This document shows, in pieces, positions 3,991 to 54,849 of a stretch of DNA of 55,245 nt (position 1 is its first letter; every line of letters starts with the position of its first letter). The DNA lies in IMG/VR virus record IMGVR_UViG_3300017653_000203, positions 1-55,245 of that record. One strand, 5' to 3'. A program made the position numbers and the translations under genes. The notes beneath the pieces are model-generated. The model was given only the letters and a program-made list of their open reading frames with translations, made no database searches and was not told where the DNA came from. Origin of the DNA: a virus. Its lineage: Duplodnaviria > Caudoviricetes.

Positions 3991-4010
3991 TTTCCTAATA
4001 TATTAGGAAA
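3991..4010. promoter_or_regulatory. Operator palindrome
   Basis: Perfect 20-bp palindrome TTTCCTAATATATTAGGAAA. Confidence 0.75.
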
Positions 4011-19545: not shown

Positions 19546-20154
19546 TTGCCCGAAGTATTTACGGTAATCGATATCGAAACAACCGGCCTTAGCGCGGCGA
19601 CCGATCACATTACGGAAATTGCCGCGATTCGCTTCGTAATTGATCCGAACGGCAGCGTGCGTGAACTTGGCCGTTTTCAAACGTACGTTGCGTTACCGGT
19701 CGGTGCCGAGATTCCTCCGTTTATTACGGAGCTGACCGGAATATCAGCGGACACGCTGATGGGCGCCAGTAACGAAACGGAAGCATCGTTGAGTCTCGAA
19801 TTCTTCATCGGCGATTCGACCGTTATAGCGCACAACGCTCCGTTTGATCTATCGTTCTTATCTACACTACATTCGGATAGATTCGTATGTACCCGCGCAC
19901 TTTCGCGCCTAGTCGAACCGTCCGAATCTGCTCGCCTTGCCGACGTCTGTGCACGCCACGGTATCGAACTCGCCGACCATCACCGTGCAATGAATGACGC
20001 CGAAGCGACCGTAAAAGTATTCGCGAAACTGCGGACGGCTGCGGAGGCTAACGGAATAACGTACCGCAACGTCGTTATCGATTCGGAAGAGCGGCCATTG
20101 ACGTACGTACCGAGAAACGCGATTGTACGAAAGATTACGAAGGAGGCGATTTAG
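19546..20154 (+). CDS. DEDDh 3'-5' exonuclease (DnaQ/PolC-exo-like)
   Basis: DIETTG, AHNAPFD, HRAMNDA. Confidence 0.92.
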   Translation: MPEVFTVIDIETTGLSAATDHITEIAAIRFVIDPNGSVRELGRFQTYVALPVGAEIPPFITELTGISADTLMGASNETEASLSLEFFIGDSTVIAHNAPFDLSFLSTLHSDRFVCTRALSRLVEPSESARLADVCARHGIELADHHRAMNDAEATVKVFAKLRTAAEANGITYRNVVIDSEERPLTYVPRNAIVRKITKEAI

Positions 20155-21222
20155 ATAACGAACACGATGTCGCATTTTACACGAATAGGTAACGAACTCG
20201 CCCGCCCACTAACCGAAGAAATCGCCGCAAATTTCCGCAAGTACCTGGACGATTGGCATAGCCGACCGGAGGTTTACGACAACGAGCTGGACGCGCAGAT
20301 TCACCGTTGGTATGCGGATATCTTGACCGATAAACGCCGAGCTGTATGGCCGCCGCGCCACATTCCGTACTTCTCGCCATCGTCCGCCAACTCCGACGCC
20401 CGCGAATTGTACGAAAAAGTCCGTGGCGCCAAGCGCGAACGGACGGGACAGCCTCCGCATCAAGGCCGATGGACAACGCTTGGGACAGCGATCGGCGATA
20501 CGGCGCAAAGGTCGCTACTATTTGCGGAGAAGCACGTTGAAGGCGCAAGATTCCGGTTTGAACGTAACACACAAGCCGAGCCGATGTTCGAAGACTTCGC
20601 GAAGGTTTCCCGTACGATTACGCATAACGGCGCTAGCTTCGCCCTCTACGGAACCTGCGACGGAATTATGCTGTACCGTTCGGACGCTGGCGAAATTATC
20701 CGCGTCGGACTCGAAATTAAATCGAAGCAGACGACATATTCGCAAACGTCGGAATTTAGTCAACGGAACGGCCCGAAAGAGGATCACGTTAAGCAAACGG
20801 TGTGCTACTCGTTGATGTACAGCGAAAACGCCGCGCCGGTCGATTATTACGTAATCCTCTACGTTAACGCATCGAAAAAGGCGTGGAATATGGACGCGGC
20901 CGAGTACGCCAAGAATCCGGACATTGCCGTACATTGTATCGAAATCACCGACGAAATGCGGGCGGCCGTACTCGACAACTTTGCAGACATCGTTAAGGCT
21001 GCAGAGACTTCGTCTCCTCCTCCGCTCAATCTCGGCAAATGGACGTTCAACAACTATAAACGAGCGTGTGCAAACGGACTTACCGTTGACGAGCTGGCGG
21101 CGTTGGAGCGTCAAGTGGCGGCCGTACAGCGGTCCGGCATGAAGGACTACGAAAAGCGTCAATATGCGGAAGCGCTGGCGGAAATACACGCGATCCGAGC
21201 GGAAGGGGCTGCGGCAGCATGA
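20155..21222 (+). CDS. RecB/Cas4-like PD-(D/E)XK exonuclease
   Basis: FSPSS, GTAIG, GTCDGI, LEIKSK, QTVCYS; RBS spacing favours ATA 20155 (ATG 20167 is the alternative). Confidence 0.8.
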   Translation: MTNTMSHFTRIGNELARPLTEEIAANFRKYLDDWHSRPEVYDNELDAQIHRWYADILTDKRRAVWPPRHIPYFSPSSANSDARELYEKVRGAKRERTGQPPHQGRWTTLGTAIGDTAQRSLLFAEKHVEGARFRFERNTQAEPMFEDFAKVSRTITHNGASFALYGTCDGIMLYRSDAGEIIRVGLEIKSKQTTYSQTSEFSQRNGPKEDHVKQTVCYSLMYSENAAPVDYYVILYVNASKKAWNMDAAEYAKNPDIAVHCIEITDEMRAAVLDNFADIVKAAETSSPPPLNLGKWTFNNYKRACANGLTVDELAALERQVAAVQRSGMKDYEKRQYAEALAEIHAIRAEGAAAA

Positions 21223-21524
21223 TGGAGTGGTACGTTGATCGTTCGAAATTCCTCGGTACGTGGACGCTAGTTTCCGTAACAGACCACGAAGGGAACATAA
21301 CAGAACGGGGCGTCCGGAGAGCCGGCGCAAAGGTGACGCTAGCAGGGCGGCCGCATCCCGGACTGCAATTCGCGTACGAATACGCTGACGGATCGGGTGT
21401 TAACGTTACGTCGCGTATCATCGATTGGGAGCGGACGACATCGTTAGGGAATCCGGACAAGCTCGTTGTAAAGACGATGAATAGCGTTTATACGTTCGTT
21501 AAGGAGGCGGCGCCAGTTGATTAG
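21219..21524 (+). CDS. Hypothetical protein
   Basis: ATGA overlap; C-terminal VKTMNSVYTF motif. Confidence 0.65.
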   Translation: MMEWYVDRSKFLGTWTLVSVTDHEGNITERGVRRAGAKVTLAGRPHPGLQFAYEYADGSGVNVTSRIIDWERTTSLGNPDKLVVKTMNSVYTFVKEAAPVD

Positions 21525-21747
21525 GAAAATTACGGTAGGCATTGCGAAGGGGATCGTTAAAGCTAGCGAAATTACAGCGGCAGCAATCGGATTTGCGTTC
21601 CTCATTTCGATACTAACCGGCTTTACGCAGTCCACGGTCGGGTTCCGTATCTGCTGCGCCTTAATGCTCGCCGTGGTTATCGGCTTGAACGTTTATACGG
21701 AGGTTACGAAGGAGGCGGGGAGTCACGGCAAAGTTGACGAAAACTAA
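21517..21747 (+). CDS. Small membrane protein with two TM segments
   Basis: Two hydrophobic stretches; AAGGAGG RBS. Confidence 0.65.
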   Translation: MIRKITVGIAKGIVKASEITAAAIGFAFLISILTGFTQSTVGFRICCALMLAVVIGLNVYTEVTKEAGSHGKVDEN

Positions 21748-22258
21748 ACCCGACCGTTATCTCATTTACGATATCTCGCTAACCTCGCCAGGCTTCGCGG
21801 CAATCGACGTAATAGGGCGAAAGCCCTCGCTCGTAACTACCGACCACGTTAAGACCGACGCAAGCCAGCCGGACGGACAGCGGTTCGCTATCGTTGAGGC
21901 TTTCGCTATTACGACGGCCTCCGGATGGGCTACAGCTTCGGTCGGCTCCGTTACGGTGATCCGCGAGGATTACAAAAACGCGGCGAGCAAGCGGCAAGGG
22001 CAGACGATATACGGCGCATGGGCTGCGGTCGATAGCGGATTGAACCGCTGCGGATTACGGGTCGCGGCGGAGGTTAACGCCAGCACCGTAAAGAAGGCGA
22101 TAGGCGGGCACGGTAAAGCGGACAAGGACGAAGTCGCGGCGGGCGTGCGGCGGATTCTCGGATTGGCGGATGACTACGAGTTTGCGACGGACGATGAAAG
22201 TGATTCGGCAGCGATTGGACTAACGTACCTTATCGAAAAGGGGCTGATTGATACGTGA
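21734..22258 (+). CDS. RuvC-like Holliday junction resolvase
   Basis: DISLTSPGFA, IRED, VKKAIGGHGKADK, DDESDSAAI. Confidence 0.85.
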   Translation: MTKTKPDRYLIYDISLTSPGFAAIDVIGRKPSLVTTDHVKTDASQPDGQRFAIVEAFAITTASGWATASVGSVTVIREDYKNAASKRQGQTIYGAWAAVDSGLNRCGLRVAAEVNASTVKKAIGGHGKADKDEVAAGVRRILGLADDYEFATDDESDSAAIGLTYLIEKGLIDT

Positions 22259-22419
22259 CGGATCGGCTGTATGACCGTTTGTATTACGCCCTTCTCCGCC
22301 AGCGCGACGAGCTGCGGTATCAAGTCGAGATGCAGACGAAATGGCTAGCGGAGAAGCAGGCGAAGTTGGCCGACGTTGAAGCGAGAATCGCCGAATATGA
22401 ACGGAAAGGCGGCGACTAA
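22255..22419 (+). CDS. Small coiled-coil protein, 54 aa (not in ORF track)
   Basis: GTGA overlap with upstream stop; fills the gap before nrdI. Confidence 0.55.
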   Translation: MTDRLYDRLYYALLRQRDELRYQVEMQTKWLAEKQAKLADVEARIAEYERKGGD

Positions 22420-22421
22420 CG

Positions 22422-22781
22422 TTGCTTATCGTTTATTATTCGCTAACCGGTAATGTCCGTCGTTTTGCGCATAAACTCGGCCGGCCCACCGCGCTGTACG
22501 AAATAACGAGCAAGAGCGCTATTGTTACGGAGCCGTTCGTTCTAGTTACGCCGACGACCGGCTTCGGGCAAGTACCGTTCTCAGTCGCGGAGTTTGTCCG
22601 GAATAATAGCGACTTACTCCGCGGCGTGGCGGCGAGCGGCAATCGTAATTGGGGGGTTAATTTCGGACGGGCCGGCGAGTTAATTGCGGAACAATACGGC
22701 GTACCGCTGCTATTGCGGTTTGAATTATCGGGAACAGACGAGGACGTACAGAAATTTATAACGGAGGTTGAGCGGCTATAA
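22422..22781 (+). CDS. nrdI: Class Ib ribonucleotide reductase flavodoxin NrdI
   Basis: YYSLTGNVRRF, TPTTGFGQVP, ASGNRNWG, FELSGT. Confidence 0.95.
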   Translation: MLIVYYSLTGNVRRFAHKLGRPTALYEITSKSAIVTEPFVLVTPTTGFGQVPFSVAEFVRNNSDLLRGVAASGNRNWGVNFGRAGELIAEQYGVPLLLRFELSGTDEDVQKFITEVERL

Positions 22782-24868
22782 CGAATCACATCGAATTAAA
22801 CAACGAAATTATGCAGCGCGACGAGTCCGGATGGTTCCGGCTTGACCGTGACCAGGCAGCAATTGACGCATTCTTAGCGGAGGTAGTGGCGAGCACGAAG
22901 AAATTCCGCCACGATCCGGACAGATTCCGCTGGCTTGTTAGAAACGGATACTATTACGATGCATACTCGCAGTATGACGAGGAAGATATCGCCGAAATCC
23001 ACCGTTTATGTTATTCGTACAACTTCCGATTTGCGTCATACATGGCCGCGTCCAAGTTTTACAAGGACTACGCGCTAAAAACGGACGACAAGGCGCAGTA
23101 TCTCGAAGATTACGAACAGCACGTCGCAATCGTAGCGCTATATCTCGGACAAGGTAGCTTCGCCCTCGCCGAACGTTTTGCCCGCGCAATGATGGAACAG
23201 CGGCTACAGCCCGCAACGCCTACGTTTATGAACGCGGGACGGGCGAAACGCGGCGAGATGGTATCGTGCTTTCTACTCGAAATGGACGATTCGCTAAATT
23301 CGATTAACTACGTGCTTGGTACGTGTATGCAACTTTCGAAGATTGGCGGCGGCGTGGCGGTCAACCTATCGAAACTACGGGGACGCGGCGAGCCGATTAA
23401 GGGCGTAGAGGGCGCGGCAAAAGGCGTCATGCCCGTTATGAAGCTGATGGAAGATGCGTTCTCGTACGCTGATCAAATGGGACAACGAAAAGGTTCCGGC
23501 GCGGCGTATTATAACGTTTTCGGATGGGACGTACTCGAATTTCTCGATTGTAAGAAGATTAATGCAGACGAAAAAACGCGGATCAAAACGTTAAGCATCG
23601 GGTTAATTACGCCGGCAAAGTTCTACGAATTAGCATCCGGAGATCAGCCGTTATATGTATTCGGACCGTTCTCCGTATATAAAGCGTACGGACGGCACCT
23701 CGACGACATGAGCATGACGGAAATGTACGACGAATTGGTTGCGAATCCTGCCGTTAAGAAGCGTCAAGTCGGAACAGCACGCGAAATGCTGGAACGGATC
23801 GCAGTAACGCAGTTACAGTCGGGATATCCGTACATTGCAAACGTAGATAATGCGAACGAACAGCACGCGCTCGGCGGACTCGGACGTATCAAAATGTCGA
23901 ACTTATGTACCGAAATTTTCCAGTTACAAGAGACGTCGACCATTGCGGACGAGGGCGAAGAAGGCACCGAATATCGTCGCGACATTTCGTGTAATCTCGC
24001 TAGTCTTAATATCGTCAACGTAATGGAGTCCGGTAAACTACGCGAATCAGTACATGTCGGTATGGACGCGTTAACGGTCGTATCGGATTTATCGCGGATA
24101 CCTAACGCACCAGGCGTCCGTAAAGCTAACGCGGAGTTGCATTCCGTAGGGCTCGGCGTCATGAACCTTAACGGATTCCTCGCGAAAAATAAGATTCCGT
24201 ACGAGTCCGAGGAGGCCCGCGATTTCTGCCGGACATTCTTCGCGGCGATGAACTTTTATTCGTTGGAAGCGTCGATGCAGATTGCGAAAGAGCGCGGCAT
24301 TACGTTTAAAGGGTTCGAGCAATCCGATTATGCCAGCGGTAAGTATTTCGAACGTTATACCGCGGATAACTATTGGCCTATGACTGATAAAGTGCGTTCC
24401 CTTTTCGCTAATATTCCGCTACCGTCTGTTGCAGATTGGAGATACTTAGCGTCGGCAGTCAAGCATTTCGGACTCTATCACGCTTACCGCTTAGCCATCG
24501 CCCCAACGCAGTCTATCTCGTACATTCAAAACGCCACATCATCCGTTATGCCTATCGTAGAACATATCGAAACGCGTACGTACGCCAACGCTACGACATA
24601 CTATCCGATGCCGTTCCTTTCTCCGGAGAATATGTTCGTTTATAAGTCGGCGTACAATATCGATCAGTTTAAGCTTATCGATTTAATCGCGGAGATTCAG
24701 CCGCACATCGACCAGGGGATTTCGACGATACTCTACGTCAACTCCGACGTAAGCACGCGGACGCTCGGCCGGTTATATGCGTACGCCAATTATCGCGGAC
24801 TTAAATCGCTATACTATACGAGAACGCAACGGTTGAAGCCGGAAGAATGTACGAGCTGCGCAATCTAA
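22778..24868 (+). CDS. nrdE: Class Ib ribonucleotide reductase alpha subunit
   Basis: PATPTFMNAG, SCFL, SNLCTEI, APTQSISY, C-terminal CTSC; conserved HIELNNEI lies upstream of the first ATG, implying an ATA start at 22778. Confidence 0.95.
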   Translation: MTNHIELNNEIMQRDESGWFRLDRDQAAIDAFLAEVVASTKKFRHDPDRFRWLVRNGYYYDAYSQYDEEDIAEIHRLCYSYNFRFASYMAASKFYKDYALKTDDKAQYLEDYEQHVAIVALYLGQGSFALAERFARAMMEQRLQPATPTFMNAGRAKRGEMVSCFLLEMDDSLNSINYVLGTCMQLSKIGGGVAVNLSKLRGRGEPIKGVEGAAKGVMPVMKLMEDAFSYADQMGQRKGSGAAYYNVFGWDVLEFLDCKKINADEKTRIKTLSIGLITPAKFYELASGDQPLYVFGPFSVYKAYGRHLDDMSMTEMYDELVANPAVKKRQVGTAREMLERIAVTQLQSGYPYIANVDNANEQHALGGLGRIKMSNLCTEIFQLQETSTIADEGEEGTEYRRDISCNLASLNIVNVMESGKLRESVHVGMDALTVVSDLSRIPNAPGVRKANAELHSVGLGVMNLNGFLAKNKIPYESEEARDFCRTFFAAMNFYSLEASMQIAKERGITFKGFEQSDYASGKYFERYTADNYWPMTDKVRSLFANIPLPSVADWRYLASAVKHFGLYHAYRLAIAPTQSISYIQNATSSVMPIVEHIETRTYANATTYYPMPFLSPENMFVYKSAYNIDQFKLIDLIAEIQPHIDQGISTILYVNSDVSTRTLGRLYAYANYRGLKSLYYTRTQRLKPEECTSCAI

Positions 24869-24902
24869 CGAAAAATTAACGAAAGGGGGTCGCCATCAAC
24901 GA

Positions 24903-25889
24903 ATGAAATGTACAAATTGGAACGTGCCGGAGGATTTCGCTAATACGTTTTGGGATCAGAACTTAGCGCAGTTTTGGATCGATACCGAGTTCCCTATTTC
25001 GGACGATCTCGGCGATTGGAACGGACTTACCGAGGCGGAACGGACGGTGTACAAACGTGTACTCGCGGGCCTTACCGGACTCGACACGCAACAAGGCGGA
25101 GAAGGAATGCCGTTAATAGCGTTGCATACGGAGGACGGCCGGCAGAAAGCGGTAATGACGTTCATGGCGGCTATGGAACAGATTCACGCTAAATCGTACT
25201 CTACGATATTTACAACGCTGACCACTTCGGAAGATACAGCTTATTTACTCGATAGGTGGGCGCCGAATCAGCGGAATCTCAAATACAAAGCGGAGCGGAT
25301 CGGTGAATATTACCGCGCATTGATCAAACCGGACGCAACGTTGTATGAGCGGTACATGGCGTGCGTGGCTTCGGTATTTCTCGAATCGTTTCTGTTTTAT
25401 AGCGGGTTTTATTATCCGCTATATCTCGGCGGTCAAGGTAAGGTTACGACGTCGGCCGAAGTCATCCGCAAAATTATGATCGATGAAGCGATTCACGGAC
25501 TGTTCGTCGGATACGTAGCACAGGGGATTTACGGAAGGTTGACGGAATCGGAACGAGAGCGCGCTGCCGCCGAAACGGACGAGTTGCTTGCAGACTTGCA
25601 CGCGAACGAAGTCGAGTATACGCGTGATATTTACGGCGAAATCGGCCTTGCCGACGACGTTATGCGATTCGTTGAATATAACGCTAACCGTGCGTTGATG
25701 CAGCTCGGACTTGAACCGGCGTTCACTCCGGAACCTTACTCCGCAATTGTGGCGAACGGCATCGACACAGGAACGCGTAATCACGATTTCTTCTCGCAAA
25801 AGGGCGATGGCTATGTTATGGCGCTAAATATCGAGCCGATGACGGACGCGGATTTCGTATTCGAAACGCCGGTGCTGCGAAAAATTTAA
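24903..25889 (+). CDS. nrdF: Class Ib ribonucleotide reductase beta subunit
   Basis: GLTGLDT, MEQIHAKSY, LESFLFYSGF, DEAIHG, HDFFS. Confidence 0.95.
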   Translation: MKCTNWNVPEDFANTFWDQNLAQFWIDTEFPISDDLGDWNGLTEAERTVYKRVLAGLTGLDTQQGGEGMPLIALHTEDGRQKAVMTFMAAMEQIHAKSYSTIFTTLTTSEDTAYLLDRWAPNQRNLKYKAERIGEYYRALIKPDATLYERYMACVASVFLESFLFYSGFYYPLYLGGQGKVTTSAEVIRKIMIDEAIHGLFVGYVAQGIYGRLTESERERAAAETDELLADLHANEVEYTRDIYGEIGLADDVMRFVEYNANRALMQLGLEPAFTPEPYSAIVANGIDTGTRNHDFFSQKGDGYVMALNIEPMTDADFVFETPVLRKI

Positions 25890-25918
25890 GCGGAAGATAC
25901 AAGAAAAGTGACGTAGTA

Positions 25919-25953
25919 ATGTCCCAATTCCGCGAAAACGTGTACTTACTATA
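25919..25953 (+). promoter_or_regulatory. Putative phage-sigma promoter, copy 2
   Basis: ATGTCCCAA...TGTACTTACTATA as at 10540-10574. Confidence 0.55.
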
Positions 25954-25992
25954 GTGTAAGGCCGACTACACAATGCGAAAGGAGTCGATTGT

Positions 25993-26355
25993 ATGGAAGA
26001 AACGAAAGTTGACGTAATGTCGGGCTTTGACGTACTCAACACGCTAGGCGGCGGAACGGTTACGGATATAGCGGATTGGGTCGTCCTCGTCAAAGTATTA
26101 CTGTTTCTAACGGCTTTAATAGCGCTTTTACTCGCACATATTATAGAGGATGTACCTACCGGAATTGTAGGAGCCGTCGCGTTATTGGTGTTAATTTTCT
26201 TCGCAATCTCCGGCGTCGGTGAAACGGAAGTTCCCGAACCGGTCCGCTACGAAATCACGGTTAAGGACGGACACGTTATCGATGCCAGCCGATGGAATAT
26301 CGTCGAGCAGCGCGGGCAAATTTACGTCATTGAAGAACGGAAGGTGAGCGAATGA
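25993..26355 (+). CDS. Membrane protein with two TM segments
   Basis: Hydrophobic segments; AAAGGAG RBS. Confidence 0.7.
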   Translation: MEETKVDVMSGFDVLNTLGGGTVTDIADWVVLVKVLLFLTALIALLLAHIIEDVPTGIVGAVALLVLIFFAISGVGETEVPEPVRYEITVKDGHVIDASRWNIVEQRGQIYVIEERKVSE

Positions 26356-27074
26356 TTACGTATAAATGTCCGGAGTGTAATTTGATTAGCGGACAAGCTC
26401 GGTGGGATGCGGCTACGGCAGCGAAGTACGGAACGGACAAGCTCGTACTGATTAGTGAAAAAGAGTCGGAAAGTGCCTCGTTCGTCTGCCCCGAATGTCG
26501 AGTAGAATCGGATGGTTGCGGAATAAAGGCAGAAGTCAACGGGTTAAACGAACAATGTAGCGTAGCCGTAAAAATCCGTAAGCTTTCCGAACACGCCCGC
26601 ATCCCAACGTACGGTACCGCCGGCGCCGCTTGCTTCGATCTATACGCGGCCGAGGACGCAATAATCGCGCCTGGCGAAACAAAGACCGTCGGGACCGGTC
26701 TTTCGGTTGAAATTCCGGACGGATACGAGCTGCAGATACGGCCACGGTCGGGGATTTCGTTAAAGACGAAGCTGCGTGTTGCTAATTCGCCAGGCTGCGT
26801 AGATAGTGATTTTCGCGGCGAGGTTGCGGTGATTTTCGATAACATAGCGGTGACTTACAACGAACTCTTTCCGTCAGTGGCTACGTTAGACGGCGGACTT
26901 GAATACGATGGCTTTGGTCAATATCTGTTTAATACGTACCTAATCCGCCGCGGCGACCGAATCGCGCAAGCCGCCGTCGTACCGGTTCCACGGGTACAAT
27001 TCGTAGAAACTGACGAGGAATTGACGAATACGGTACGCGGAAACGGCGGCTTCGGGCACACCGGAACAAATTAA
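26352..27074 (+). CDS. dut: Trimeric dUTPase with N-terminal zinc-finger extension
   Basis: AACFDL, PRSG, GCVDSDFRGE, RIAQ, RGNGGFGHTG; N-terminal CPEC...CPEC. Confidence 0.9.
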   Translation: MITYKCPECNLISGQARWDAATAAKYGTDKLVLISEKESESASFVCPECRVESDGCGIKAEVNGLNEQCSVAVKIRKLSEHARIPTYGTAGAACFDLYAAEDAIIAPGETKTVGTGLSVEIPDGYELQIRPRSGISLKTKLRVANSPGCVDSDFRGEVAVIFDNIAVTYNELFPSVATLDGGLEYDGFGQYLFNTYLIRRGDRIAQAAVVPVPRVQFVETDEELTNTVRGNGGFGHTGTN

Positions 27075-27090
27075 CGAAGGAGGCCGCAAA

Positions 27091-27858: not shown

Positions 27859-27893
27859 AACACGGGAGCGAAAACCGAAGGAGTGACGTAATT

Positions 27894-28226
27894 ATGACGA
27901 AATCACTTGCGGAGAAGATTGCAGAATTGGACGCCAAGCGCGCGGAGGTCGCGGCGTTGGAAAAGGAAGTAGCTACGGGCATTGTGGGCTCGCTAGTATG
28001 CGTTACTGGTGAAGGTTATCACGGGGATATAAAAATCGGAACGATAGTAAAAGTTTTAGAGATAGACCACGACTATGAAGAATATCCGTATAAATGCGAA
28101 TTACTAGACGGTTCCGACTTTGACAGATTAAATATCGCTGAACTCGAATTCCTCACGCCCGAAGCCGCCCGCGCCCGCCTTATTGCCGACATCGACCGTC
28201 AACTCGCGGAGGCTTGCGGACAATAA
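27894..28226 (+). CDS. SH3-like module protein
   Basis: YPYKCELLDGS module shared with 14076-15251; AAGGAG RBS. Confidence 0.7.
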   Translation: MTKSLAEKIAELDAKRAEVAALEKEVATGIVGSLVCVTGEGYHGDIKIGTIVKVLEIDHDYEEYPYKCELLDGSDFDRLNIAELEFLTPEAARARLIADIDRQLAEACGQ

Positions 28227-28702
28227 GTAGCGTATATGCGCTGTTCATGGCGCTGGCGTGCGCATGGCTTACGGACGTAGATGCAACGACGACGGAACCG
28301 GTAGCAATCGTACAGGAGGCGGAAGAAACGACCGAGTCCGAATGGCTTACGTTTGAAGCTACGGACGAACAGGAGACGTGGCGCACTTTCACGGCTACTG
28401 CGTATACCGCTAACTGCCGCGGCTGCACCGGTATAACGAAAACGGGCATAGACGTCCGGCAGACGATAGTCGACGAAGAGGGCAGGCGTATCATCGCGGT
28501 CGATCCGCGCGTGATTCCGTTAGGCAGCCGAATCGATATTCGTATAGGCAGCGAAATAATCGAAGGCGTCGCAGAAGATATCGGCGGAGCAATTAAAGGC
28601 GCCCGTATTGACGTATTAATGGCGGATTACAGCGAAGCTGTAACGTTCGGGCGGCAGGACGTAGAGGTACGGATTATAAACGAAAAAGAAGCGGAGGAAT
28701 GA
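28223..28702 (+). CDS. 3D-domain (MltA-like) cell wall protein with N-terminal signal or anchor
   Basis: ATAYT...GITKTG...IAVDPRVIPLGS...AEDIGGAIKGARIDV; ATA start inferred from RBS spacing. Confidence 0.88.
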   Translation: MSSVYALFMALACAWLTDVDATTTEPVAIVQEAEETTESEWLTFEATDEQETWRTFTATAYTANCRGCTGITKTGIDVRQTIVDEEGRRIIAVDPRVIPLGSRIDIRIGSEIIEGVAEDIGGAIKGARIDVLMADYSEAVTFGRQDVEVRIINEKEAEE

Positions 28703-28705
28703 CGA

Positions 28706-30948: not shown

Positions 30949-30950
30949 AT

Positions 30951-30988
30951 AAAAACGACTCTACCGCATAGGCAACGGCTAGAGTCGT
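30951..30988 (-). terminator. Intrinsic terminator between convergent genes
   Basis: ACGACTCTA...TAGAGTCGT inverted repeat with an A-run on the left. Confidence 0.65.
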
Positions 30989-30996
30989 AAATAACG

Positions 30997-31359
30997 TTAA
31001 GCTTCCGGACTTGCATCTTCGCTAACAAACACGAACCACCCGTCCTGCTCCGCCGCAAACACGTAGCGGCCGCGTTTCGGTTCGAGCTGCGTCCGGTTAA
31101 AAAATCGTCCGGCCGAAATATACCCGCGCTTATCAACGTTTGCCGCCGTCGGGTCGGCCGGATTCGCGGCGGGCTTTATCGCAATAGCACGTTCGGCCGC
31201 GGCGTATCCGAGCGCGACACGGTTCCCGGCATCAAGTCCGTACATTTTAACGATATCCGACGATAGCCGCAGCCGCTTTTGCGCGTCGGTCGCTACGTAG
31301 AGGTTGACGAGCGGGATTTCTTCGATATTAAAGCGTAGAGTTTCGTTTGCCACACGCAC
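30997..31359 (-). CDS. Putative tandem AbrB/MraZ-like DNA-binding protein
   Basis: TDAQKRLRLSSDIVKMYGLDAGNRV and VDKRGYIS swapped-hairpin-like repeats. Confidence 0.5.
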   Translation of the reverse strand: MRVANETLRFNIEEIPLVNLYVATDAQKRLRLSSDIVKMYGLDAGNRVALGYAAAERAIAIKPAANPADPTAANVDKRGYISAGRFFNRTQLEPKRGRYVFAAEQDGWFVFVSEDASPEA

Positions 31360-31441
31360 ACACTCCGATCAATTAACGGTTTTACAACGATAAATCGTCG
31401 AGATTGTAACGATATTATAACAGGAATGGGAGGCGGTTTCC

Positions 31442-32790
31442 ATCGGAAACACATCGTTTAAGTACGTAGAGTTGTTCGCAGGTATCGGAGGTTTTCGTCA
31501 AGCGTTGGACGCGCTGGGCGGCGAGTGCGTATTCGCGAGCGAGATTGACCCGTTCGCGACGCGAGCGAGATTGACCCGTTCGCGACGCGAGCGTATAAGG
31601 CGTTGTACGGAGATAAGGACGGAGTTTGCCCGGAATTGCACGGCGATATAACCGCGGTAGAGGCGCGCGACATTCCGGATCATGACGTATTAGTAGGCGG
31701 ATTTCCATGCCAGGCGTTCAGCGTCGCAGGACAGCGTAAAGGATTCGAAGATACGCGCGGGACTTTATTCTTCGAAATCGCACGAATTGCAGATGCGAAG
31801 CGTCCGCGGCTAATGCTGCTAGAAAACGTAAAGGGACTGTTGTCCCACGACGGCGGTAATACGTTCGAAACGATGTGCGCGGCGCTTAACGAAATCGGTT
31901 ACGCGGTCGACTTCCGCATTCTTAATAGCAAGCACTTTGCCGTACCGCAGAATCGTGAGCGCATATTTATCGTCGCTGACCGCGACGCAGCGGACGAACC
32001 GTGGGCGATACAGCCGAAGGCTAACGATGTTGTAACGAAGGCTAAACGAAGGGTGGCGGCTCTCGGTATTAGAACGTTCAATTTCGATTGGCCGACGGAA
32101 GGCGACATAACGGTGCGATTGCGTGACGTGTTGGAAACGGACGTTGACGAAAAATACTACTTGTCCGAAGAGAAAACGGCGAAGTTACTGGCGCAGCTTA
32201 GTGAACGTAATCATCACGTTGAGCCTTGCGTTAATGATCGCGGATCATTACGTGTTAACCTCGAAGGAGTTTCGAATGCGTTGGATGCCAGTTATTTTAA
32301 AGGGTTAGATAATCATGCGCAGCGTACGCATGTGATCGAATACTCACGTAAAACGGGTATTGGCCGCGAACTAGAGCAGGCACACTGTTTATCTGCGTCG
32401 GACTGGCGAGGGCTTAATCGTAATCAAGCGCAAACAGCCTTGTTAGAAGTCCGTCCGGTACTCACGCCTGACCGTGAAGAGAAAGCTCAAAACGGACGCC
32501 GTTTTAAAGATGACGGAGAGGAATCGTTTACACTTACGGCGCAGGACAAGCACGGCGTTGCTATCGGAACATTCCCTCGTTACCGCATCCGTAAATTAAC
32601 GCCGCTAGAATGCTGGCGACTACAAGGATTCTCGGACGCTGCGCATGATACCGTTAAAGCCGCCGGCGTATCCGATTCGCAACGTTATAAGCAAGCGGGG
32701 AATGCCGTCACTCGTAACGTAATCGCGGCAATAGGCAAGCCGTTGATTGAACGTTTAGATACGAAATTTACCGTACAGGAGGCGGCATAA
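31442..32790 (+). pseudogene. DNA (cytosine-5) methyltransferase, frameshifted by a 26-bp tandem duplication
   Basis: Motif I ELFAGIGG is in a different frame from GFPCQAFS, ENVKGL, PQNRERIF, QAGNAV; removing one repeat unit restores a 440-aa ORF from an ATC start. Confidence 0.88.
31534..31593 (+). repeat. 26-bp tandem duplication plus 8-bp partial copy
   Basis: CGCGAGCGAGATTGACCCGTTCGCGA twice (31534-59, 31560-85), then CGCGAGCG. Confidence 0.97.
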
Positions 32791-32791
32791 C

Positions 32792-33010
32792 ATGACGTGG
32801 AAAACGATTGATTCCGCACCTAAAGACGGAACTTGCGTACTCGTATACAACGATGACGGTTGTGTTTACGCAGCAGAATACGATGACTATTTCGGAAAGT
32901 GGCGTTTCCCTTCCGCCGATCAACATGGCTGCGGATGCTGTAGCGGCGATGGCGACGCACCTACGCATTGGATGCCTTTACCCGAAAAACCAACGGAGGT
33001 GTCCGAATAG
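32792..33010 (+). CDS. DUF551-like protein
   Basis: WKTIDSAPKDGT...PTHWMPLPEKP. Confidence 0.8.
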   Translation: MTWKTIDSAPKDGTCVLVYNDDGCVYAAEYDDYFGKWRFPSADQHGCGCCSGDGDAPTHWMPLPEKPTEVSE

Positions 33011-33400
33011 ATGGACTTGACGAAGCAAACTCGGAAATACACGGAGAGCTATACGCTTTCTACGGCGGCCGGCGTTAAAGCGCTGCTCCGCGACCGGCAT
33101 CGGATTGCGGCACGCCGATTCAAGGGCGATACGGCGGCGTCCGACATATTGATCGATTTACACTCCGCTATCAATTCCGCCGGCTTAACGGATCGGCAAA
33201 CGGAGGCGGTGGCGTGGGTGTACGGAGTGGACGTGACGCAAGCGGAGGCGGCCCGGATTATGGGGATTACGCGAGAAGGCGTAAAGAACCTCGTAAATGA
33301 AGCGGTAGAACGTGTCGCTGCGGTTTATGAACGTTGGGAATACGGCGAGGTTACGGTAGAAGGCGAAAGCCCGTTCGAAATCGGAAAGGTGGCGGCTTAA
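33011..33400 (+). CDS. Sigma70 region-4-like HTH regulator
   Basis: LTDRQTEAV...TQAEAARIMGITREGV. Confidence 0.8.
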   Translation: MDLTKQTRKYTESYTLSTAAGVKALLRDRHRIAARRFKGDTAASDILIDLHSAINSAGLTDRQTEAVAWVYGVDVTQAEAARIMGITREGVKNLVNEAVERVAAVYERWEYGEVTVEGESPFEIGKVAA

Positions 33401-34047
33401 TGGCGGAAACATACACAGAAAGATTCGCGGCACTAGTTACGGAAATCGTCGCAAACGTAAAGGGGCGTAAAACATGCGATAGCTTACGTTATGCTTACGG
33501 CGGGGTCGGTTATGATCTCGTCGACCGGTCGCAGCGTATGGCGTTAATTGAGCGCGTGGCGGATGGTTATATTAAGGCGCACGCCGACGTAAACCAAGCG
33601 ACACTAGACGCGTGGAGGGAGCGAGGCTGTAACGGAGAGAGGCCGTCGCCAATTTCGCTGGACACTGCGCTAATTGAACGTTTAACTGACGCAATCCTTG
33701 ACGAAGAATTGACGGACCCGAATCCGTACAAAGTTTCACACGAAGAGTACCCGTTCATGTCCGATAGGCAGCTCGACCTCCGCCGCGACCGTGAAACCGG
33801 ATTGAAAGCGGTAGAGGAAACGGGCATGGACGGCCGCGATTATCGGAAGCCAACGAAGCGCCGCCGGACGAATTACGAAAATTGGCACGTAGACCATCAT
33901 GCGCGCGGTCGGAACAAAGAACGCCAGCGTCAGTATGCGAAAGATACGGCGGCCGGACCGGTCTCTTACGGAAGAAGCGCCGCGGAGTTTGTTACGGCCG
34001 CGTCCGTTGCTAAAAAGTGGAGAGAGCGGTTAAGTCTCGTTTATTAA
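33400..34047 (+). CDS. Hypothetical phage protein
   Basis: TAATG overlap; LERLTD-like ILDEELTDPNPYKV...EYPFMS segment. Confidence 0.7.
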   Translation: MAETYTERFAALVTEIVANVKGRKTCDSLRYAYGGVGYDLVDRSQRMALIERVADGYIKAHADVNQATLDAWRERGCNGERPSPISLDTALIERLTDAILDEELTDPNPYKVSHEEYPFMSDRQLDLRRDRETGLKAVEETGMDGRDYRKPTKRRRTNYENWHVDHHARGRNKERQRQYAKDTAAGPVSYGRSAAEFVTAASVAKKWRERLSLVY

Positions 34048-34109
34048 TCCAATAACTACCGCCTCATTACGGTCGTGCATAGCGCTATAATCGTATTGAG
34101 GTGGTTTTT

Positions 34110-34958
34110 ATGTTTGTTGAACCGATGTTACTCGGAAAGCGCGAAGAACCGTTCGACGACGATCGTTATATTTTTCAGCCGAAAATCGACGGCCATCGGT
34201 TAATATTATCGCGTACAGCCGGACAGGTGCGCTTATATACACGTCACAACAACGACGTGACACTTCAATACCCGGAGTTGCATAACGTTCCGGTCGATGG
34301 CGATGTTGATGTCGTTTTAGACGGCGAAGTCGCCCGGATGGATGAAACGGGCTGGATCGACTTTGAAGCGGTCATGGAGCGGTTCCGTCTTACGAAGCAG
34401 GAGCGAATTAGCGAGGCCGCACGTACTATGCCGGTACATTATTACGTGTTTGACGTGCTGCATTACAACGGGGAGGACGTGCGGGGATGGCCGCTTACGG
34501 ATCGATTAGCGTTGTTATCGGATATTACGTCGTCAAATCCGCATTACTCCAATGTGCTGACGGTGCCGGGTGCGGGGATTGCGTTATTTAACACGGTAAA
34601 GGAACGCCGGTTAGAAGGTATCGTAGCAAAGCGTAAGAGTAGCGTATATGTAGGGCGGCGGTCGGAAAATTGGCTAAAGATTATCAATTACGAGTACGCC
34701 GACGTTCATATTGCGGGTTATCGTAAAGGTGATTTCGGATGGTTGGCGCACATAGACGGACGGCCCGCGGGCGTTATCGAGTTGGCGGTACCGGCTGCGC
34801 ATAAAAAAGCGTTTTACAACGTTGCTCGTACGCTCGTGACGGGCGAGGACAGGAATTTTGTTTACGTCCAGCCGCGGATAAAGGCGCGCGTCCGGTTCCG
34901 GAACTACTATAAGAGCGGAATGTTACGTACGCCGGAGTTTGTTGAATTTGTATTGTAG
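34110..34958 (+). CDS. ATP-dependent DNA ligase (LigD ligase-domain type)
   Basis: QPKIDGHR, LDGEV, VFDVL, EGIVAKR, MLRTPEF. Confidence 0.92.
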   Translation: MFVEPMLLGKREEPFDDDRYIFQPKIDGHRLILSRTAGQVRLYTRHNNDVTLQYPELHNVPVDGDVDVVLDGEVARMDETGWIDFEAVMERFRLTKQERISEAARTMPVHYYVFDVLHYNGEDVRGWPLTDRLALLSDITSSNPHYSNVLTVPGAGIALFNTVKERRLEGIVAKRKSSVYVGRRSENWLKIINYEYADVHIAGYRKGDFGWLAHIDGRPAGVIELAVPAAHKKAFYNVARTLVTGEDRNFVYVQPRIKARVRFRNYYKSGMLRTPEFVEFVL

Positions 34959-35085
34959 CCATCATGTATATTATTATCCCGAACGTTTGGAAATATAATA
35001 AGCCGCAGGGATGCTTTCCCATACGGCTTAGAATCAGATTACCGTAGTATTCCAATTTAATCAACGGTCTCTAACGAACAAATCT

Positions 35086-35113
35086 GCCGATCCTCCGTAG
35101 GGTCGGTTTTTAT
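35086..35113 (+). terminator. Intrinsic terminator
   Basis: GCCGATCCT-ccgt-AGGGTCGGT followed by a T-run. Confidence 0.75.
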
Positions 35114-35452
35114 TTACGCTTCGAATCCCGCACCTTCAATATCCCGGATCGGGAACCATTCACCGTCAACCATAAAGCGCTTATTGATCGGGTCTACTCG
35201 ATCCACAACCCCGACTATCTGTAAATCCTCAAATGGATGATACATTTTTATTGCAATTAGCCTGCGCTGCTGCATCGACTCGTAAACGATCCTTGATATA
35301 TCCTGCCATTCCTGGTCATCAAGCTCTATCCGCTGGCGGCGTTTGAGCTCTTTAAAATTTTCGTTCAACGCAATCTTATGCTCCGGCAGCATCATCCGGG
35401 ACGATTCCCAAAATCCGTTGCCCGTCAATTTCTTAGAGTCCTTCGTTAACAT
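35114..35452 (-). CDS. YolD-like protein
   Basis: KKLTGNGFWESSRMMLPEHK...ELDDQEWQDI. Confidence 0.85.
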   Translation of the reverse strand: MLTKDSKKLTGNGFWESSRMMLPEHKIALNENFKELKRRQRIELDDQEWQDISRIVYESMQQRRLIAIKMYHPFEDLQIVGVVDRVDPINKRFMVDGEWFPIRDIEGAGFEA

Positions 35453-35481
35453 AGCGTTTTCCCTCCTTGGCCTTAACGCTA

Positions 35482-35510
35482 ATTATACGAGAACACACGT
35501 TCGATTTCAA
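35482..35510 (-). promoter_or_regulatory. LexA-controlled SigA promoter of the yolD-like gene
   Basis: TTGAAA-17 nt-TATAAT on - strand, with Gram-positive SOS box CGAACGTGTGTTC in the spacer. Confidence 0.85.
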
Positions 35511-35732
35511 TTAGTCGGCGTACGTAAATTTGCAATTTTCGATCATAAAATGTTCAGACGTTCCGTCCTTGTTTCCGATAATTACCGTTTCGTCCGTTAC
35601 TTCCGCAATCCGGCCGCTGCCGATCAATTCGCCGTCCTGGAACGCTAGAATCGTAGTACCGTCGAGTTTAGCCGTATGAAAATGGATCGGAGCAGTCAGC
35701 TGGCGGAAGCCGGCGTATTTTTTCTTCGTCAT
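35511..35732 (-). CDS. Hypothetical protein
   Basis: GAGGTG RBS, 73 aa. Confidence 0.65.
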   Translation of the reverse strand: MTKKKYAGFRQLTAPIHFHTAKLDGTTILAFQDGELIGSGRIAEVTDETVIIGNKDGTSEHFMIENCKFTYAD

Positions 35733-35927
35733 AGTACGTCACCTCAACGGAATTATTCGACAAATTGGCGGAAATTCCTTTATGTCCGTACCATTTTACG
35801 CGGTTTCAAGGCTATACGTTATAGACACGTTGCTTCTCCGTGAGGCGGCGTTCTTATTTTGCGCTAAAACGCATATAGCGGCATATACTCCGCTTCTTAG
35901 CGCTCGAAAAGGAGCGTAATAAACCGA

Positions 35928-36443
35928 ATGTCCAACGTAATTGATACGTCAACAGGAGAAATCATAGACGAAGTAAATGCGCGTCATTTTCGGAACAGCA
36001 CATCGGAGGCTCAACGCGTTGTAATGGACGTTCAGCCTGGCGATCAAGTTAACGTAGGCAAGCCGAAGAAATTCGCCCGCGCCGCCGAGTTTACGATGGT
36101 ATTCCACGGCAGTACGCGCGAGTTAGTCCGTTCGAAGGCGTTAAGTGACGATGAAAAATCGCTGCTATTTTCGTTACTCATATACCTTGACTACGACCAA
36201 TATGTAAAGGACGAAGAGCGGTTCTTCTTCAACGTTAACCGAGCGGCGGAGTTGATGGGATGGTCGCGACACCGTTGCGGACGGGTACTCGAAGCGCTCC
36301 GGAAACAACGGCTGATAGGCGTTACAAGCGTCGGCCGCGCGAAATATTACATGCTAAATCCGGCGTTCATTTACCGCGGCGATACGTCGGGGCACGAGTC
36401 AGCCGTTAAACTATTCGAACAGGCCGCGGTCGATGACGAGTGA
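35928..36443 (+). CDS. RepL-like winged-helix protein
   Basis: HTH-like segment followed by YYMLNPAFIYRG, reminiscent of Firmicute RepL; AAAGGAG RBS. Confidence 0.6.
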   Translation: MSNVIDTSTGEIIDEVNARHFRNSTSEAQRVVMDVQPGDQVNVGKPKKFARAAEFTMVFHGSTRELVRSKALSDDEKSLLFSLLIYLDYDQYVKDEERFFFNVNRAAELMGWSRHRCGRVLEALRKQRLIGVTSVGRAKYYMLNPAFIYRGDTSGHESAVKLFEQAAVDDE

Positions 36444-36452
36444 GAACGGTTC

Positions 36453-36496
36453 TAATGGAATGCCAGCGTACCATTAATGGAATGCTAGCGTACCAT
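36453..36496 (+). repeat. Two tandem 22-bp quasi-palindromic repeats
   Basis: TAATGGAATGCCAGCGTACCAT / TAATGGAATGCTAGCGTACCAT, bracketed by TTCTAATGG...CCATTAGAA. Confidence 0.9.
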
Positions 36497-36499
36497 TAG

Positions 36500-37330
36500 A
36501 ATTCCCGCGAAGCCGCACCGTTACGCGATTTCGGGCATTTTCGCCTTCTTATCCCAAGGAAAACGAAAACAAACGAAAGTAATCGCGTCGTCGGCTTCGC
36601 CTTCCTAGCGAACAAGTTCCGCGGCAAAAACGGCCTTGATACTTGTAATATCGGATACGTCATACTTTAATCGTACGATAGGAGCTTACGTATAAGGTAT
36701 TCCGACGACGCGGCAGCGGCGGAGGACAAGGAGGCGTAGCCGACACGTAAGGCTCTTTAGCTCGCGTCAAGTCGATACGACTTATCGATGAGCCTTTCAT
36801 TTGTTCCCGTCAATGCTTTGCATTGTTCGCGAACCTACGTAATACACACCGTACGGTACCGATAGGCTACCGTTGTAACCTTCGCAATTAACGTAGCGTT
36901 CTACGTTGCTATTATAGTAGCGATATTTTACGTAGGGATTACGAAGGGTTACGGAGGTAATGGCGTAACGGTGACGGAGGGAATAGCGTTCGGTTACGAA
37001 TGGGTAACGAAATGATTACGATACATTTGCAGCGCGGCTCTGACCGGACGGCCTTCGGAAACTCACGGGGTCGGACGTAGACTAACGTCTAATTCCGTCT
37101 ATTTCGTTTGTACTATTACGTATATTTGGCGGGTGAATCCCGGATGGTAGCGGTCGATAGCTGACGTGGAACGGTAAGAATGGCGTAACGGTGCGGGTTG
37201 GCAGCGATTGAGGCTGCGGAGTACTACTTCGTAAAATACGGATTTTGTGAAGTAGTACTTCGTGCTTTAACGCACGAAAGCGTCGCCCCCAACGGGTACC
37301 CGCGCAGGCGGTTCGGTAACCGTAAATAGT
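36500..37330 (+). ncRNA. Candidate large structured RNA (or structured origin/packaging DNA)
   Basis: No credible ORF; many local and long-range stems, several with G-U pairs on + strand. Confidence 0.45.
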
Positions 37331-37375
37331 TAGCGTACAATTTTTTAAACTCAATACGTTAAGGAGGCGTTAGCA

Positions 37376-38020
37376 ATTACGAAACAATGCGCAACATGTG
37401 GCGGAAGCGTACCTGACGTTAAATTTTCCCGTAATCATAAGCATTGCAATCGGTGCCGTAGCGTAAAGTCGCGCACATACATAGCGGAGTATCAACGTAA
37501 ACGACGTGCTTCGTTAACCGAAGAGGAACGCGAGGCAGAACGTCAGAGAACGCGTAAATACCGCGAAGAGAATCCGCACTTAACGTTCTTTACTACATCG
37601 CGTTACCTGGCGAATAAAGCCGGTGTTGCTTCCGACTTAACGCAGGAGGACGCTTACGACATATATTACACGGCTGACGCTTGCTCATATTGCGGAAGAA
37701 CACCGGAGGAAGCAGCCGAAAAACGATCGTTCAGTATCGATCATATTATCCCGATGATACAAGGCGGTCCGAACAGCCGCTGGAACCTTACGAAAGTATG
37801 TAACGGTTGTAACTCGTCAAAAAGCTCCGCCTCGCTCGCAGACTTCCGTAGCCGGACGCCGGAGTTTACGGATGAACGTTACCAAGCGGTAATCTCCGCA
37901 ATGGCTACGTTATCCGGTAAGTCGCCGGAATACATTGACGAATTGTTAACGCAATCGGCCGAATTTGAAGCGGCATACCAGCGTGAGCGGGCACGGATGG
38001 AGTCGTTGCTCGCCGCATAA
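37376..38020 (+). CDS. HNH endonuclease with N-terminal Zn finger and Arg-rich helix (214 aa)
   Basis: AAGGAGG-8 nt-ATT; CATC...CNRC, CSYCG, DHIIP...GG...N...CNGCNSSK; the ORF track shows only the last 88 aa. Confidence 0.85.
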   Translation: MTKQCATCGGSVPDVKFSRNHKHCNRCRSVKSRTYIAEYQRKRRASLTEEEREAERQRTRKYREENPHLTFFTTSRYLANKAGVASDLTQEDAYDIYYTADACSYCGRTPEEAAEKRSFSIDHIIPMIQGGPNSRWNLTKVCNGCNSSKSSASLADFRSRTPEFTDERYQAVISAMATLSGKSPEYIDELLTQSAEFEAAYQRERARMESLLAA

Positions 38021-54839: not shown

Positions 54840-54849
54840 GGAGGACGTT

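Follow-up and report, generated by a model that had tools for sequence, protein, structure and literature searches.

Near-cognate AUH start codons behind strong Shine-Dalgarno sequences as probable weak initiation sites in a Paenibacillus-type siphophage lineage

The infC gene, which encodes initiation factor 3 (IF3), begins with the near-cognate codon AUU behind a strong Shine-Dalgarno (SD) sequence, and IF3 discriminates against this codon. According to three further reports, extended SD sequences direct initiation at AUU and AUA in Staphylococcus aureus with an output of ∼10% of that of AUG, and up to 30% (PMC13009471), non-canonical codons in Escherichia coli generally reach 0.01-2% (bioRxiv 10.1101/063800), and raised IF3 inhibits non-canonical starts (PMC2268962). 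The IMG/VR virus record IMGVR_UViG_3300017653_000203 (Duplodnaviria; Caudoviricetes), analysed here over its whole length of 55,245 bases and hereafter called the window, carries five genes whose best SD-backed start candidate is ATA, ATC or ATT (together ATH; ATG, GTG and TTG are taken as canonical). Comparison with related phages and prophages suggests that these codons are quite probably real, weak, SD-compensated initiation codons that restrain DNA-cutting and other catalytic proteins.

Each of the five ATH codons and SD sequences that the first-pass annotation had pointed out was read directly in the sequence. When seven codons were scanned as potential starts of the 70 plus-strand open reading frames (ORFs), exactly these five genes had an ATH codon as their best SD-backed candidate with no adjacent canonical codon. 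The SD spacing is 8-10 nt at all five sites, with duplex energies of -9.5 to -16.1 kcal/mol, and the upstream gene's stop codon abuts or overlaps the start at three of them (20152-20157, 22778-22781 and 28223-28226), the HNH and methyltransferase sites having no such contact. A workable canonical alternative is absent for nrdE, HNH and the methyltransferase and present for the nuclease and the 3D gene. TTG starts, which had also been called frequent, are the best candidate in 9 of the 70 ORFs, a share that is usual for Bacillota. The start sites and the genes behind them are as follows.

20140-20157, plus strand: nuclease start site, with AAGGAGG at 20140-20146, 8 nt, and ATA at 20155; SD duplex -16.1 kcal/mol.
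20155-21222, plus strand: Cas4/RecB-like nuclease gene, whose relatives in GenBank are labelled CRISPR/Cas-associated or exonuclease.
22763-22780, plus strand: nrdE start site, with GGAGG at 22763-22767, 10 nt, and ATA at 22778; SD duplex -11.8 kcal/mol.
22778-24868, plus strand: nrdE, class Ib ribonucleotide reductase (RNR) alpha subunit, with Pfam RNR_N at 4-83, Ribonuc_red_lgN and Ribonuc_red_lgC.
28208-28225, plus strand: 3D gene start site, with GGAGG at 28208-28212, 10 nt, and ATA at 28223; SD duplex -9.5 kcal/mol.
28223-28702, plus strand: 3D-domain protein with a hydrophobic N-terminus (Pfam 3D domain, 1.1e-12).
31428-31444, plus strand: methyltransferase start site, with GGGAGG at 31428-31433, 8 nt, and ATC at 31442; SD duplex -15.2 kcal/mol.
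31442-32790, plus strand: C5-cytosine DNA methyltransferase in two frames, with pieces at 31442-31651 and 31603-32790.
31534-31593, plus strand: exact tandem duplication of period 26 and 2.3 copies (Tandem Repeats Finder, 100% matches).
37361-37378, plus strand: HNH start site, with AAGGAGG at 37361-37367, 8 nt, and ATT at 37376; SD duplex -11.1 kcal/mol.
37376-38020, plus strand: HNH endonuclease whose N-terminal part carries a CxxC...CxxC stretch; Pfam places HNH_5/HNH at residues 103-156.

The HNH gene sits just upstream of the terminase genes, and its ATT is very likely the main start. An in-frame TAA lies at 37346 and no upstream gene abuts the site. As had been noted, ATG, GTG and TTG are absent from its first 126 codons, which include the zinc-finger-like stretch; the first canonical codon in the ORF, ATG 37754 (residue 127), falls within the HNH domain, and a protein begun there would lack the DH dipeptide of the HNH motif as well as the CxxC...CxxC stretch. 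A standard gene caller would leave an 88-residue fragment of this enzyme. The ATA of nrdE is nearly as secure. All of the elements first described for this gene are present, namely GGAGG placed 10 nt from ATA 22778, the in-frame TGA just upstream (22769-22771), HIELNNEI ahead of the first ATG and an nrdI stop overlapped by the start as ATAA. No canonical codon follows before ATG 22811, and the in-frame candidates between TGA 22769 and the conserved HIELNNEI are solely non-canonical. Position 1 of the Pfam RNR_N profile corresponds to residue 4 of the ATA-started protein, and the ORF of 696 codons is intact. A programmed -1 frameshift from nrdI into nrdE was considered and rejected, there being no slippery X XXY YYZ heptamer in GCGGCTATAA (22769 to 22779); relatives also have independent TTG or GTG starts at this place.

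The ATC of the methyltransferase can be assigned as its main start with good confidence, in a gene that is broken in this copy. The claim that no canonical codon lies between the in-frame TAA at 31418 and the first motif was borne out; the first is TTG 31472, a leucine codon within VELFAGIGG. The Pfam DNA_methylase profile aligns from position 1 at residue 6, five residues past ATC, and covers positions 1-36 in the first piece and positions 47-322 in the second, which lies in a different frame because the 26-nt duplication shifts the reading frame. The pieces are 161 nt apart, and 161 - 26 = 135, a multiple of 3, so that one copy fewer would give a single frame from 31442 to 32790. The copy is thus truly disrupted, but by the duplication rather than at the start. 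Contigs from public runs neither bridge nor contradict the duplication, and one contig of the probable source run (X1) begins inside it at 31564.

For the two remaining genes the described ATA and SD are in place, but canonical alternatives had been overlooked. ATA 20155 of the nuclease stands directly 3' of the TAG (20152-20154) that ends the upstream exonuclease gene, and an in-frame ATG 20167 lies four codons further on, 20 nt from the SD; the predicted protein has no Pfam match. ATA 28223 of the 3D gene overlaps the upstream gene's stop as ATAA, with an in-frame TTG 28214 three codons before it, only 1 nt past the SD (-2.6 kcal/mol), and an in-frame ATG 28247 eight codons past it. Initiation chiefly at ATA is rather probable for the nuclease and, on balance, somewhat favoured for the 3D gene. 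Together with the 26-nt duplication of the methyltransferase, these canonical codons are what the first reading missed.

Alignment of orthologous start regions had been proposed as a check, and the comparison took in approximately 130 loci of related phages and prophages (Paenibacillus, Cohnella and Brevibacillus), the cultured phages Halcyone and Tripp among them. Loci were retrieved from viral contigs with the HNH, terminase, NrdE and nuclease proteins, and from one genome per species with the nuclease. In each relative the start was taken as the codon with the best SD duplex, a canonical codon being preferred when within 2 kcal/mol; alignments were discarded if their identity was <35% or if they began after query residue 30, and loci sharing an identical 48-nt context were counted once. 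The ATN codons do alternate with ATG and other canonical codons in relatives: in the nuclease, nrdE, HNH, methyltransferase and terminase genes the SD-anchored codon varies among ATG, TTG, GTG, CTG and ATH, and the canonical codons found at the orthologous position argue that this position is the start site. The nuclease start is non-canonical in 28 of 40 relatives (ATC 10, ATT 10, ATA 4, CTG 4), canonical in 11 and without a candidate in 1, and its stop-start junction is kept across the clade (TAA followed by ATT, ATC or CTG); one relative (L119) has TAG directly followed by ATA with no nearby ATG. RuvC is non-canonical in 22/38, chiefly with CTG behind SDs of the GGAGGTGA type, and the N-terminal part of DNA polymerase in 6/10. 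Methyltransferase orthologs begin with ATT or ATA in 4/7 (ATG 2, TTG 1), nrdE orthologs with ATH in 7/20 (TTG 9, GTG 4; among the ATH cases, L115 has a further in-frame GTG two codons upstream) and HNH orthologs with ATC or ATA in 3/9 (TTG 4, ATG 2). The large terminase is non-canonical in 13/48, with an identical N-terminus, (M)AW(I/V)DG.W. The small terminase has a single non-canonical start among 44, and none was found in scaffold (0/22), major capsid (0/9), minor capsid (0/41), ThyX (0/13) or exonuclease (0/7) genes.

In the 3D gene, the closest relative (L130) has ATT aligned with the ATA of the window and ACT in place of TTG, and ATC stands behind AAGGAGG(C/T)GGT-type SDs in L124, L126, L128 and L129. 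The nrdE stretch from ATA to ATG 22811, including HIELNNEI, is conserved as protein with synonymous differences among relatives, and the codon aligned to ATG 22811 is AAA or AAG in five of them (L072/L116, L115, L128 and L130). FastTree trees, built without the first residue, require at least seven switches between canonical and non-canonical codons among 49 terminases and at least five among 39 nucleases; counted over the seven codons, the changes number at least 13 and at least 17, respectively. Weak SDs stand behind two of the RuvC calls (L072, L081) and three of the 3D calls (L022, L027, L123). The automatic calls for the portal family (17/50 "ATC/ATT") were not used, since most had SDs of only -1.6 to -5 and 10 loci lacked a candidate, and the count is unreliable because the search window evidently missed real N-termini; the SD-anchored portal cases that stand are ATA 2 and ATC 1 of 23, ATT in L016 and CTG in Halcyone.

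Nuclease relatives with non-canonical starts were seen solely in Paenibacillus, Cohnella and Brevibacillus loci, and all five relatives from Bacillus, Sporosarcina and Enterococcus phages have TTG, GTG or ATG at the same stop-start junction. A side feature of the start regions is the second codon ACG, which follows 19/82 non-canonical and 19/294 canonical starts (by family, 5/23 and 11/97) and occurs in the window as ATA ACG twice and ATT ACG once; its excess is taken as mostly a family effect, the by-family contrast being weak, and it was not retained as a feature of these starts.

The SD sequences themselves differ between the two classes of site, both of which were selected on the same GGAGG core and spacing. 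The median SD duplex is -15.0 kcal/mol at ATH codons and -12.5 kcal/mol at ATG (Mann-Whitney p=2e-9), with -15.1 at TTG and -16.6 at CTG, and the spacing at ATH codons is 8-9 nt in 49/67. The three bases past GGAGG are C or U, G and G far more often at non-canonical sites, which lengthens the helix towards the start codon: GGAGGCGG is present at 34/82 non-canonical and 13/294 canonical sites (9/23 and 11/97 by family). The anti-SD tail, whose sequence was assumed, occurs 7 times in the host genome G001 and has no exact match in the draft genome G003. The host's own infC has GGAGGTGG, ∼8 nt and ATT in 5/5 Paenibacillus genomes. All five (including those numbered L198/G001, L199/G003 and L200/G002) also carry, besides infC, a second and shorter IF3-like gene; of three copies inspected, two encode ∼157 aa from an ATG start. 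Two IF3_C matches were found in 19/151 sampled genomes of the host's class, a survey that is not tied to Paenibacillaceae because it came without taxon labels.

Enrichment over background was assessed with a strict scan that required GGAGG at 6-10 nt spacing, an ORF of >=100 codons, a stop <=25 codons upstream and no canonical codon either in that interval or within two codons, with the 57 other sense codons as controls. The window yields 12 canonical and 3 ATH sites, and 5 for the 57 controls together; the methyltransferase and 3D sites fall outside these rules. Over the window and loci L001-L131 the counts are ATG 212, TTG 58, GTG 24, ATC 31, ATT 19, ATA 17 and CTG 15, with a top control codon at 9. 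The 63 loci anchored solely on the large terminase give 168 canonical, 22 ATH and 1 CTG, and 33 for the 57 controls. The same scan of a host sample of 60 stretches of 20 kb (1.2 Mb) from two Paenibacillus chromosomes with related prophages gives 124 canonical, 3 ATH and 3 CTG, and 73 for the 57 controls, so that ATH is not enriched over background in this sample (3 against ∼4 predicted). The terminase-anchored loci differ from the host at p=0.0025 (ATH vs canonical) and 4e-7 (ATH vs others) by Fisher's test. A looser scan, in which any 5-mer of AAGGAGGTG counted as an SD, is reported alongside the strict one and is taken up below.

Common gene callers consider ATG, GTG and TTG alone, and the GenBank record of Halcyone annotates all 76 of the 76 plus-strand coding sequences (CDS) that were checked with one of these three (one further CDS, lacking upstream sequence, was skipped). 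The annotated first codons of its portal, nuclease and RuvC CDS lack an SD (-1.7 to -2.5 kcal/mol), and in-frame candidates lie upstream of each: CTG with an SD of -17.2 at 42 codons for portal, ATC with -12.6 at 16 for the nuclease and CTG with -17.0 at 17 for RuvC. The Tripp nuclease is likewise annotated 53 codons downstream of an SD-backed ATC. In Halcyone RuvC, the annotated TTG start lies past the aspartate of GLDLS, a motif that we take to hold the first catalytic aspartate of RuvC, and the CTG behind GGAGGTGA precedes it. The loss of the HNH motif, the AAA or AAG codons in nrdE relatives and the aspartate of Halcyone RuvC together argue that function needs the upstream start, and the GenBank records of Halcyone and Tripp would cut these genes short. 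The sites concerned in the cultured P. larvae phages are 6010 and 7004 in Halcyone (L197), 3742 in L201 and 410 in Tripp (L208). A script also flagged ATA as a candidate 34 codons upstream of the RNR alpha subunit gene in Halcyone; this codon lies within the preceding annotated gene and was not used.

The preferred model is that ATA, ATC and ATT, and CTG in relatives, are read by the initiator tRNA as weak initiation codons, with a strong and often 3'-extended SD (GGAGG, C or U, GG) 8-10 nt upstream that would keep the 30S subunit in register. Such codons may function because the strong, extended and precisely spaced SD offsets poor codon-anticodon pairing in the P site. Across the clade, made up of Paenibacillus-type siphophages resembling Halcyonevirus, the start of a given gene would drift among ATG, TTG, GTG, CTG and ATH, the weak codons persisting where the product is needed in small amounts or is dangerous, as may apply to the Cas4-like nuclease, RuvC, HNH, large terminase, methyltransferase, part of the DNA polymerase, the RNR alpha subunit and the 3D wall-binding protein, and ATG being retained by abundant structural genes. 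The weak starts probably keep these proteins scarce; the likely outcome would be approximately ten-fold lower translation per mRNA and a sensitivity to IF3 like that of the host infC, and three of the five sites in the window may also receive ribosomes that terminate on the upstream gene. Tuning through weak starts, as the first-pass annotation had suggested, fits the recurrence at orthologous sites, the bias towards catalytic genes and the stronger, extended SDs. We infer from these sequence patterns that initiation occurs at the codons, how efficient and how IF3-dependent it may be, and that the pattern would be adaptive rather than merely tolerated.

Several observations weigh against this model. 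Of the five SDs in the window, only two exceed the typical strength (-16.1 and -15.2), the others being ordinary or weak (-11.8, -11.1 and -9.5). The looser SD scan is swamped by background, with phage-vs-host p values for ATH against canonical of 0.12 (terminase-anchored loci) and 0.085 (window). Locus counts are not independent because the genes are orthologs, and most loci were retrieved using the very genes in question. The frameshifted methyltransferase may no longer have its start under selection here, the window derives from a soil metagenome of low depth (a word depth of 2-6 in X1, which is probably its own source), and none of the public runs containing the sequence is recorded as RNA. 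Canonical alternatives are available at the nuclease and 3D sites, and a reading in which these two genes start canonically (at ATG 20167, and at TTG 28214 or ATG 28247), leaving only nrdE, HNH and the methyltransferase as non-canonical, is less probable than not and still deserves weight. The start codon of L088, L090 and L074 (MSHFTRIG), which is TTG, ATT or ATC, aligns to ATG 20167, and this ATG, 13 nt past the upstream stop, could be reached by a re-initiating ribosome; it lies, however, 20 nt from the sole SD, whereas ATA 20155 has a spacing of 8 nt and a duplex of -16.1 kcal/mol, and in L089 and L119 the codon at the place of this ATA is ATT or ATA, with no ATG. Likewise, TTG 28214 would give a signal-peptide-like MRTISS... 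in agreement with the N-termini of L124 and L126, (M)R(I/A)(I/V), but its distance of 1 nt from the SD and the ACT of L130 speak for the ATA. Tolerated drift in genes of low expression would account equally well for the gene-specific pattern. Under such drift, near-cognate codons would suffice for low-demand genes behind very strong SDs, as real starts with no regulatory purpose that wander neutrally and are purged in highly expressed genes alone. Fast codon turnover in the nuclease and terminase trees, the finding of four near-cognates and three canonical codons at the same site, and the gene-specific split, which relaxed constraint would also predict, all accord with this unlikely but serious alternative. 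The distinctly stronger, extended SDs and narrower spacing at non-canonical sites look instead like compensation under selection, non-canonical states dominate some families across wide divergence (28/40 in the nuclease), and sampled host genes show no similar drift. Selected tuning and tolerated drift cannot be told apart from sequence.

The stop-start contacts raise a further explanation, in which the pattern is driven chiefly by termination-reinitiation: ribosomes that finish the upstream gene would resume at the abutting ATH under laxer start-codon scrutiny, and the weak codon would fix a coupling ratio instead of a separate rate of initiation. The contacts at three of the five sites (TAG directly followed by ATA at 20152-20157, and ATAA at 22778 and 28223) and the conservation of the nuclease junction in the clade agree with it, as does the known ability of SDs to boost re-initiation (PMC2268962). 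HNH and the methyltransferase, however, have no upstream gene to couple with, many terminase and RuvC sites are non-abutting, and, according to the same report, re-initiation in E. coli still requires fMet-tRNA and is inhibited by IF3 (PMC2268962), so that scrutiny is not bypassed; as the main driver, coupling therefore seems doubtful. It is very unlikely that a peculiarity of the phage or of its Paenibacillaceae host lowers start-codon fidelity and renders ATH and CTG efficient in infection, as relaxed fidelity in lytic growth had been proposed to do. The restriction of non-canonical nuclease starts to Paenibacillaceae-associated loci, with canonical starts in 5/5 outside relatives, and the second, divergent IF3-like gene in all five host genomes checked would suit such a peculiarity, but the window, itself ∼85% complete, contains no tRNA and no IF3_N or IF3_C match at E<=1, sampled host chromosomal genes lack ATH enrichment, and the stronger SDs at non-canonical sites suggest that the codons are weak in vivo. 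The related idea of genes kept quiet in the lysogen finds no counterpart in the gene set, which spans the replication and packaging modules so that nothing marks it as lysogeny-related. Errors of sequencing or assembly, or a decaying prophage with recent inactivating mutations, are scarcely credible; sequencing error and recent inactivation had been named at the outset as what would refute the starts. The assembly is a low-depth metagenome and the methyltransferase is visibly broken; the feature nevertheless recurs in isolate genomes and cultured phages, and long intact ORFs stand behind the codons (696 codons in nrdE), the methyltransferase excepted. At 22778 and 37376 the contigs of X1 agree fully with the window, a contig of another sample (X2) spans 28223 without difference, and no variant is listed at the five sites in four public runs (contigs rather than reads, at low depth). 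With the relatives, these contigs exclude error or recent inactivation for four of the genes.

If the SD-compensated weak starts are real, it is conceivable, though quite improbable, that their sensitivity to IF3 constitutes a built-in translational gate of the phage clade, an infC-like sensor over a viral gene set that is possibly Paenibacillaceae-specific. The Cas4-like nuclease, RuvC, HNH, large terminase and methyltransferase would then be near-silent from leaky lysogen or early transcripts and would rise disproportionately when the ratio of IF3 to ribosomes or to mRNA drops, or when the host's second IF3-like protein takes over. A lineage with near-cognate starts in approximately one in ten strong-SD genes, extended SDs and low-copy enzymes would offer a natural, replicated data set that bears on the trade-off between SD strength and start-codon identity in Bacillota, and IF3-dependent control of viral gene expression becomes directly testable in cultivable phage-host pairs.

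The record is classed as a provirus by IMG/VR and as ∼85% complete, its best public holder is a soil metagenome run, and coding lies almost entirely on the plus strand. ORFs reach past both record ends (window 1-257 and 54823-55245), which makes the element incomplete or permuted. Despite the provirus class of the source, the window showed no integrase, whether tyrosine or serine recombinase, and no tRNA genes or IF3_N or IF3_C domains were detected in this record, which is open at both ends. Pfam matches indicate, in the early part, a Gad1-like protein, a helicase loader, a primase and a family-A DNA polymerase in two ORFs; in the replication and nucleotide part, a DEDDh exonuclease, RuvC resolvase, NrdI/NrdE, dUTPase and ThyX; further on, the 3D-domain protein, a dNMP kinase, the C5 methyltransferase, sigma-like proteins and a DNA ligase; and, for packaging and structure, the HNH endonuclease adjoining the genes for the small and large terminase, together with a minor capsid protein, a scaffold protein and a capsid of the SU10 type. 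Position, and homology to portal genes of relatives, gave the portal gene its name. The polymerase is split into 15248-17068 (exonuclease domain and profile positions 19-124) and 17275-18363 (profile positions 126-380), with a small ORF at 17073-17291 between the parts, a layout that is the same in Halcyone (CDS 59, 60 and 61). A homolog of the Gabija anti-defence protein Gad1 (Pfam PF25705, 2.2e-19) is encoded at 1243-2139, and a type I restriction HSDR_N nuclease-like domain at 2558-3619 on the minus strand, the sole long minus-strand gene in the first 9 kb, in low-GC surroundings (42.5% in 2001-4000). Sigma-factor-like proteins are encoded at 10592-11173, where the Sigma70_r2 match is weak and under Pfam's cut-off, and at 33011-33400, which matches Sigma70_r4 and has an ATC start in 3/22 relatives.

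The literature yielded no paper describing such starts in this phage lineage. The word "non-canonical" is absent from the main text, supplements aside, of two comparisons of P. larvae phages (PMC6070908, PMC11860570), and, within that text, start codons are mentioned by one of them, in the methods and figure legends alone. By protein, the nearest cultured relatives of the window are the P. larvae phages of the genus Halcyonevirus (nuclease 57-59% identity), and related prophages are located in Paenibacillus, Cohnella and Brevibacillus genomes. Phages of this genus (Halcyone, Heath, Scottie, Unity, Tripp, Ash, Ley and C7Cdelta) share the gene order exonuclease, nuclease, RuvC, RNR and have SD-backed ATC or CTG candidates upstream of their annotated nuclease, RuvC and portal starts. 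The window, in contrast, is a soil-metagenome record with no DNA-level match in the phage collection (megablast of window 20000-38000), and is not a member of these species.

Among described mechanisms, the termination-reinitiation of M13 genes V-VII (PMC2268962) resembles the nuclease, nrdE and 3D sites in the contact between stop and start and in the SD inside the end of the upstream gene, whereas the HNH and methyltransferase sites stand alone and the restart codon of the M13 reporter is AUG. The phage sites share with infC the near-cognate codon behind a strong SD, but they belong to many unrelated genes, use all of AUH together with CUG and have no feedback loop, and their sensitivity to IF3 would be an extension from infC. 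S. aureus provides a parallel in a Bacillota host, where cvfC1 (AUU), ccpN (AUA) and infC (AUA) carry a start-proximal SD extension as at the phage sites (PMC13009471). In contrast to this handful of chromosomal regulators, the phage clade appears to have a clade-wide habit, with approximately one in ten strong-SD starts in the terminase-anchored loci, that takes in AUC and CUG and essential genes such as the large terminase. The principle is known, and the literature searches brought up no description of a phage lineage in which AUH and CUG starts are so frequent, gene-specific and accompanied by a matching SD signature.

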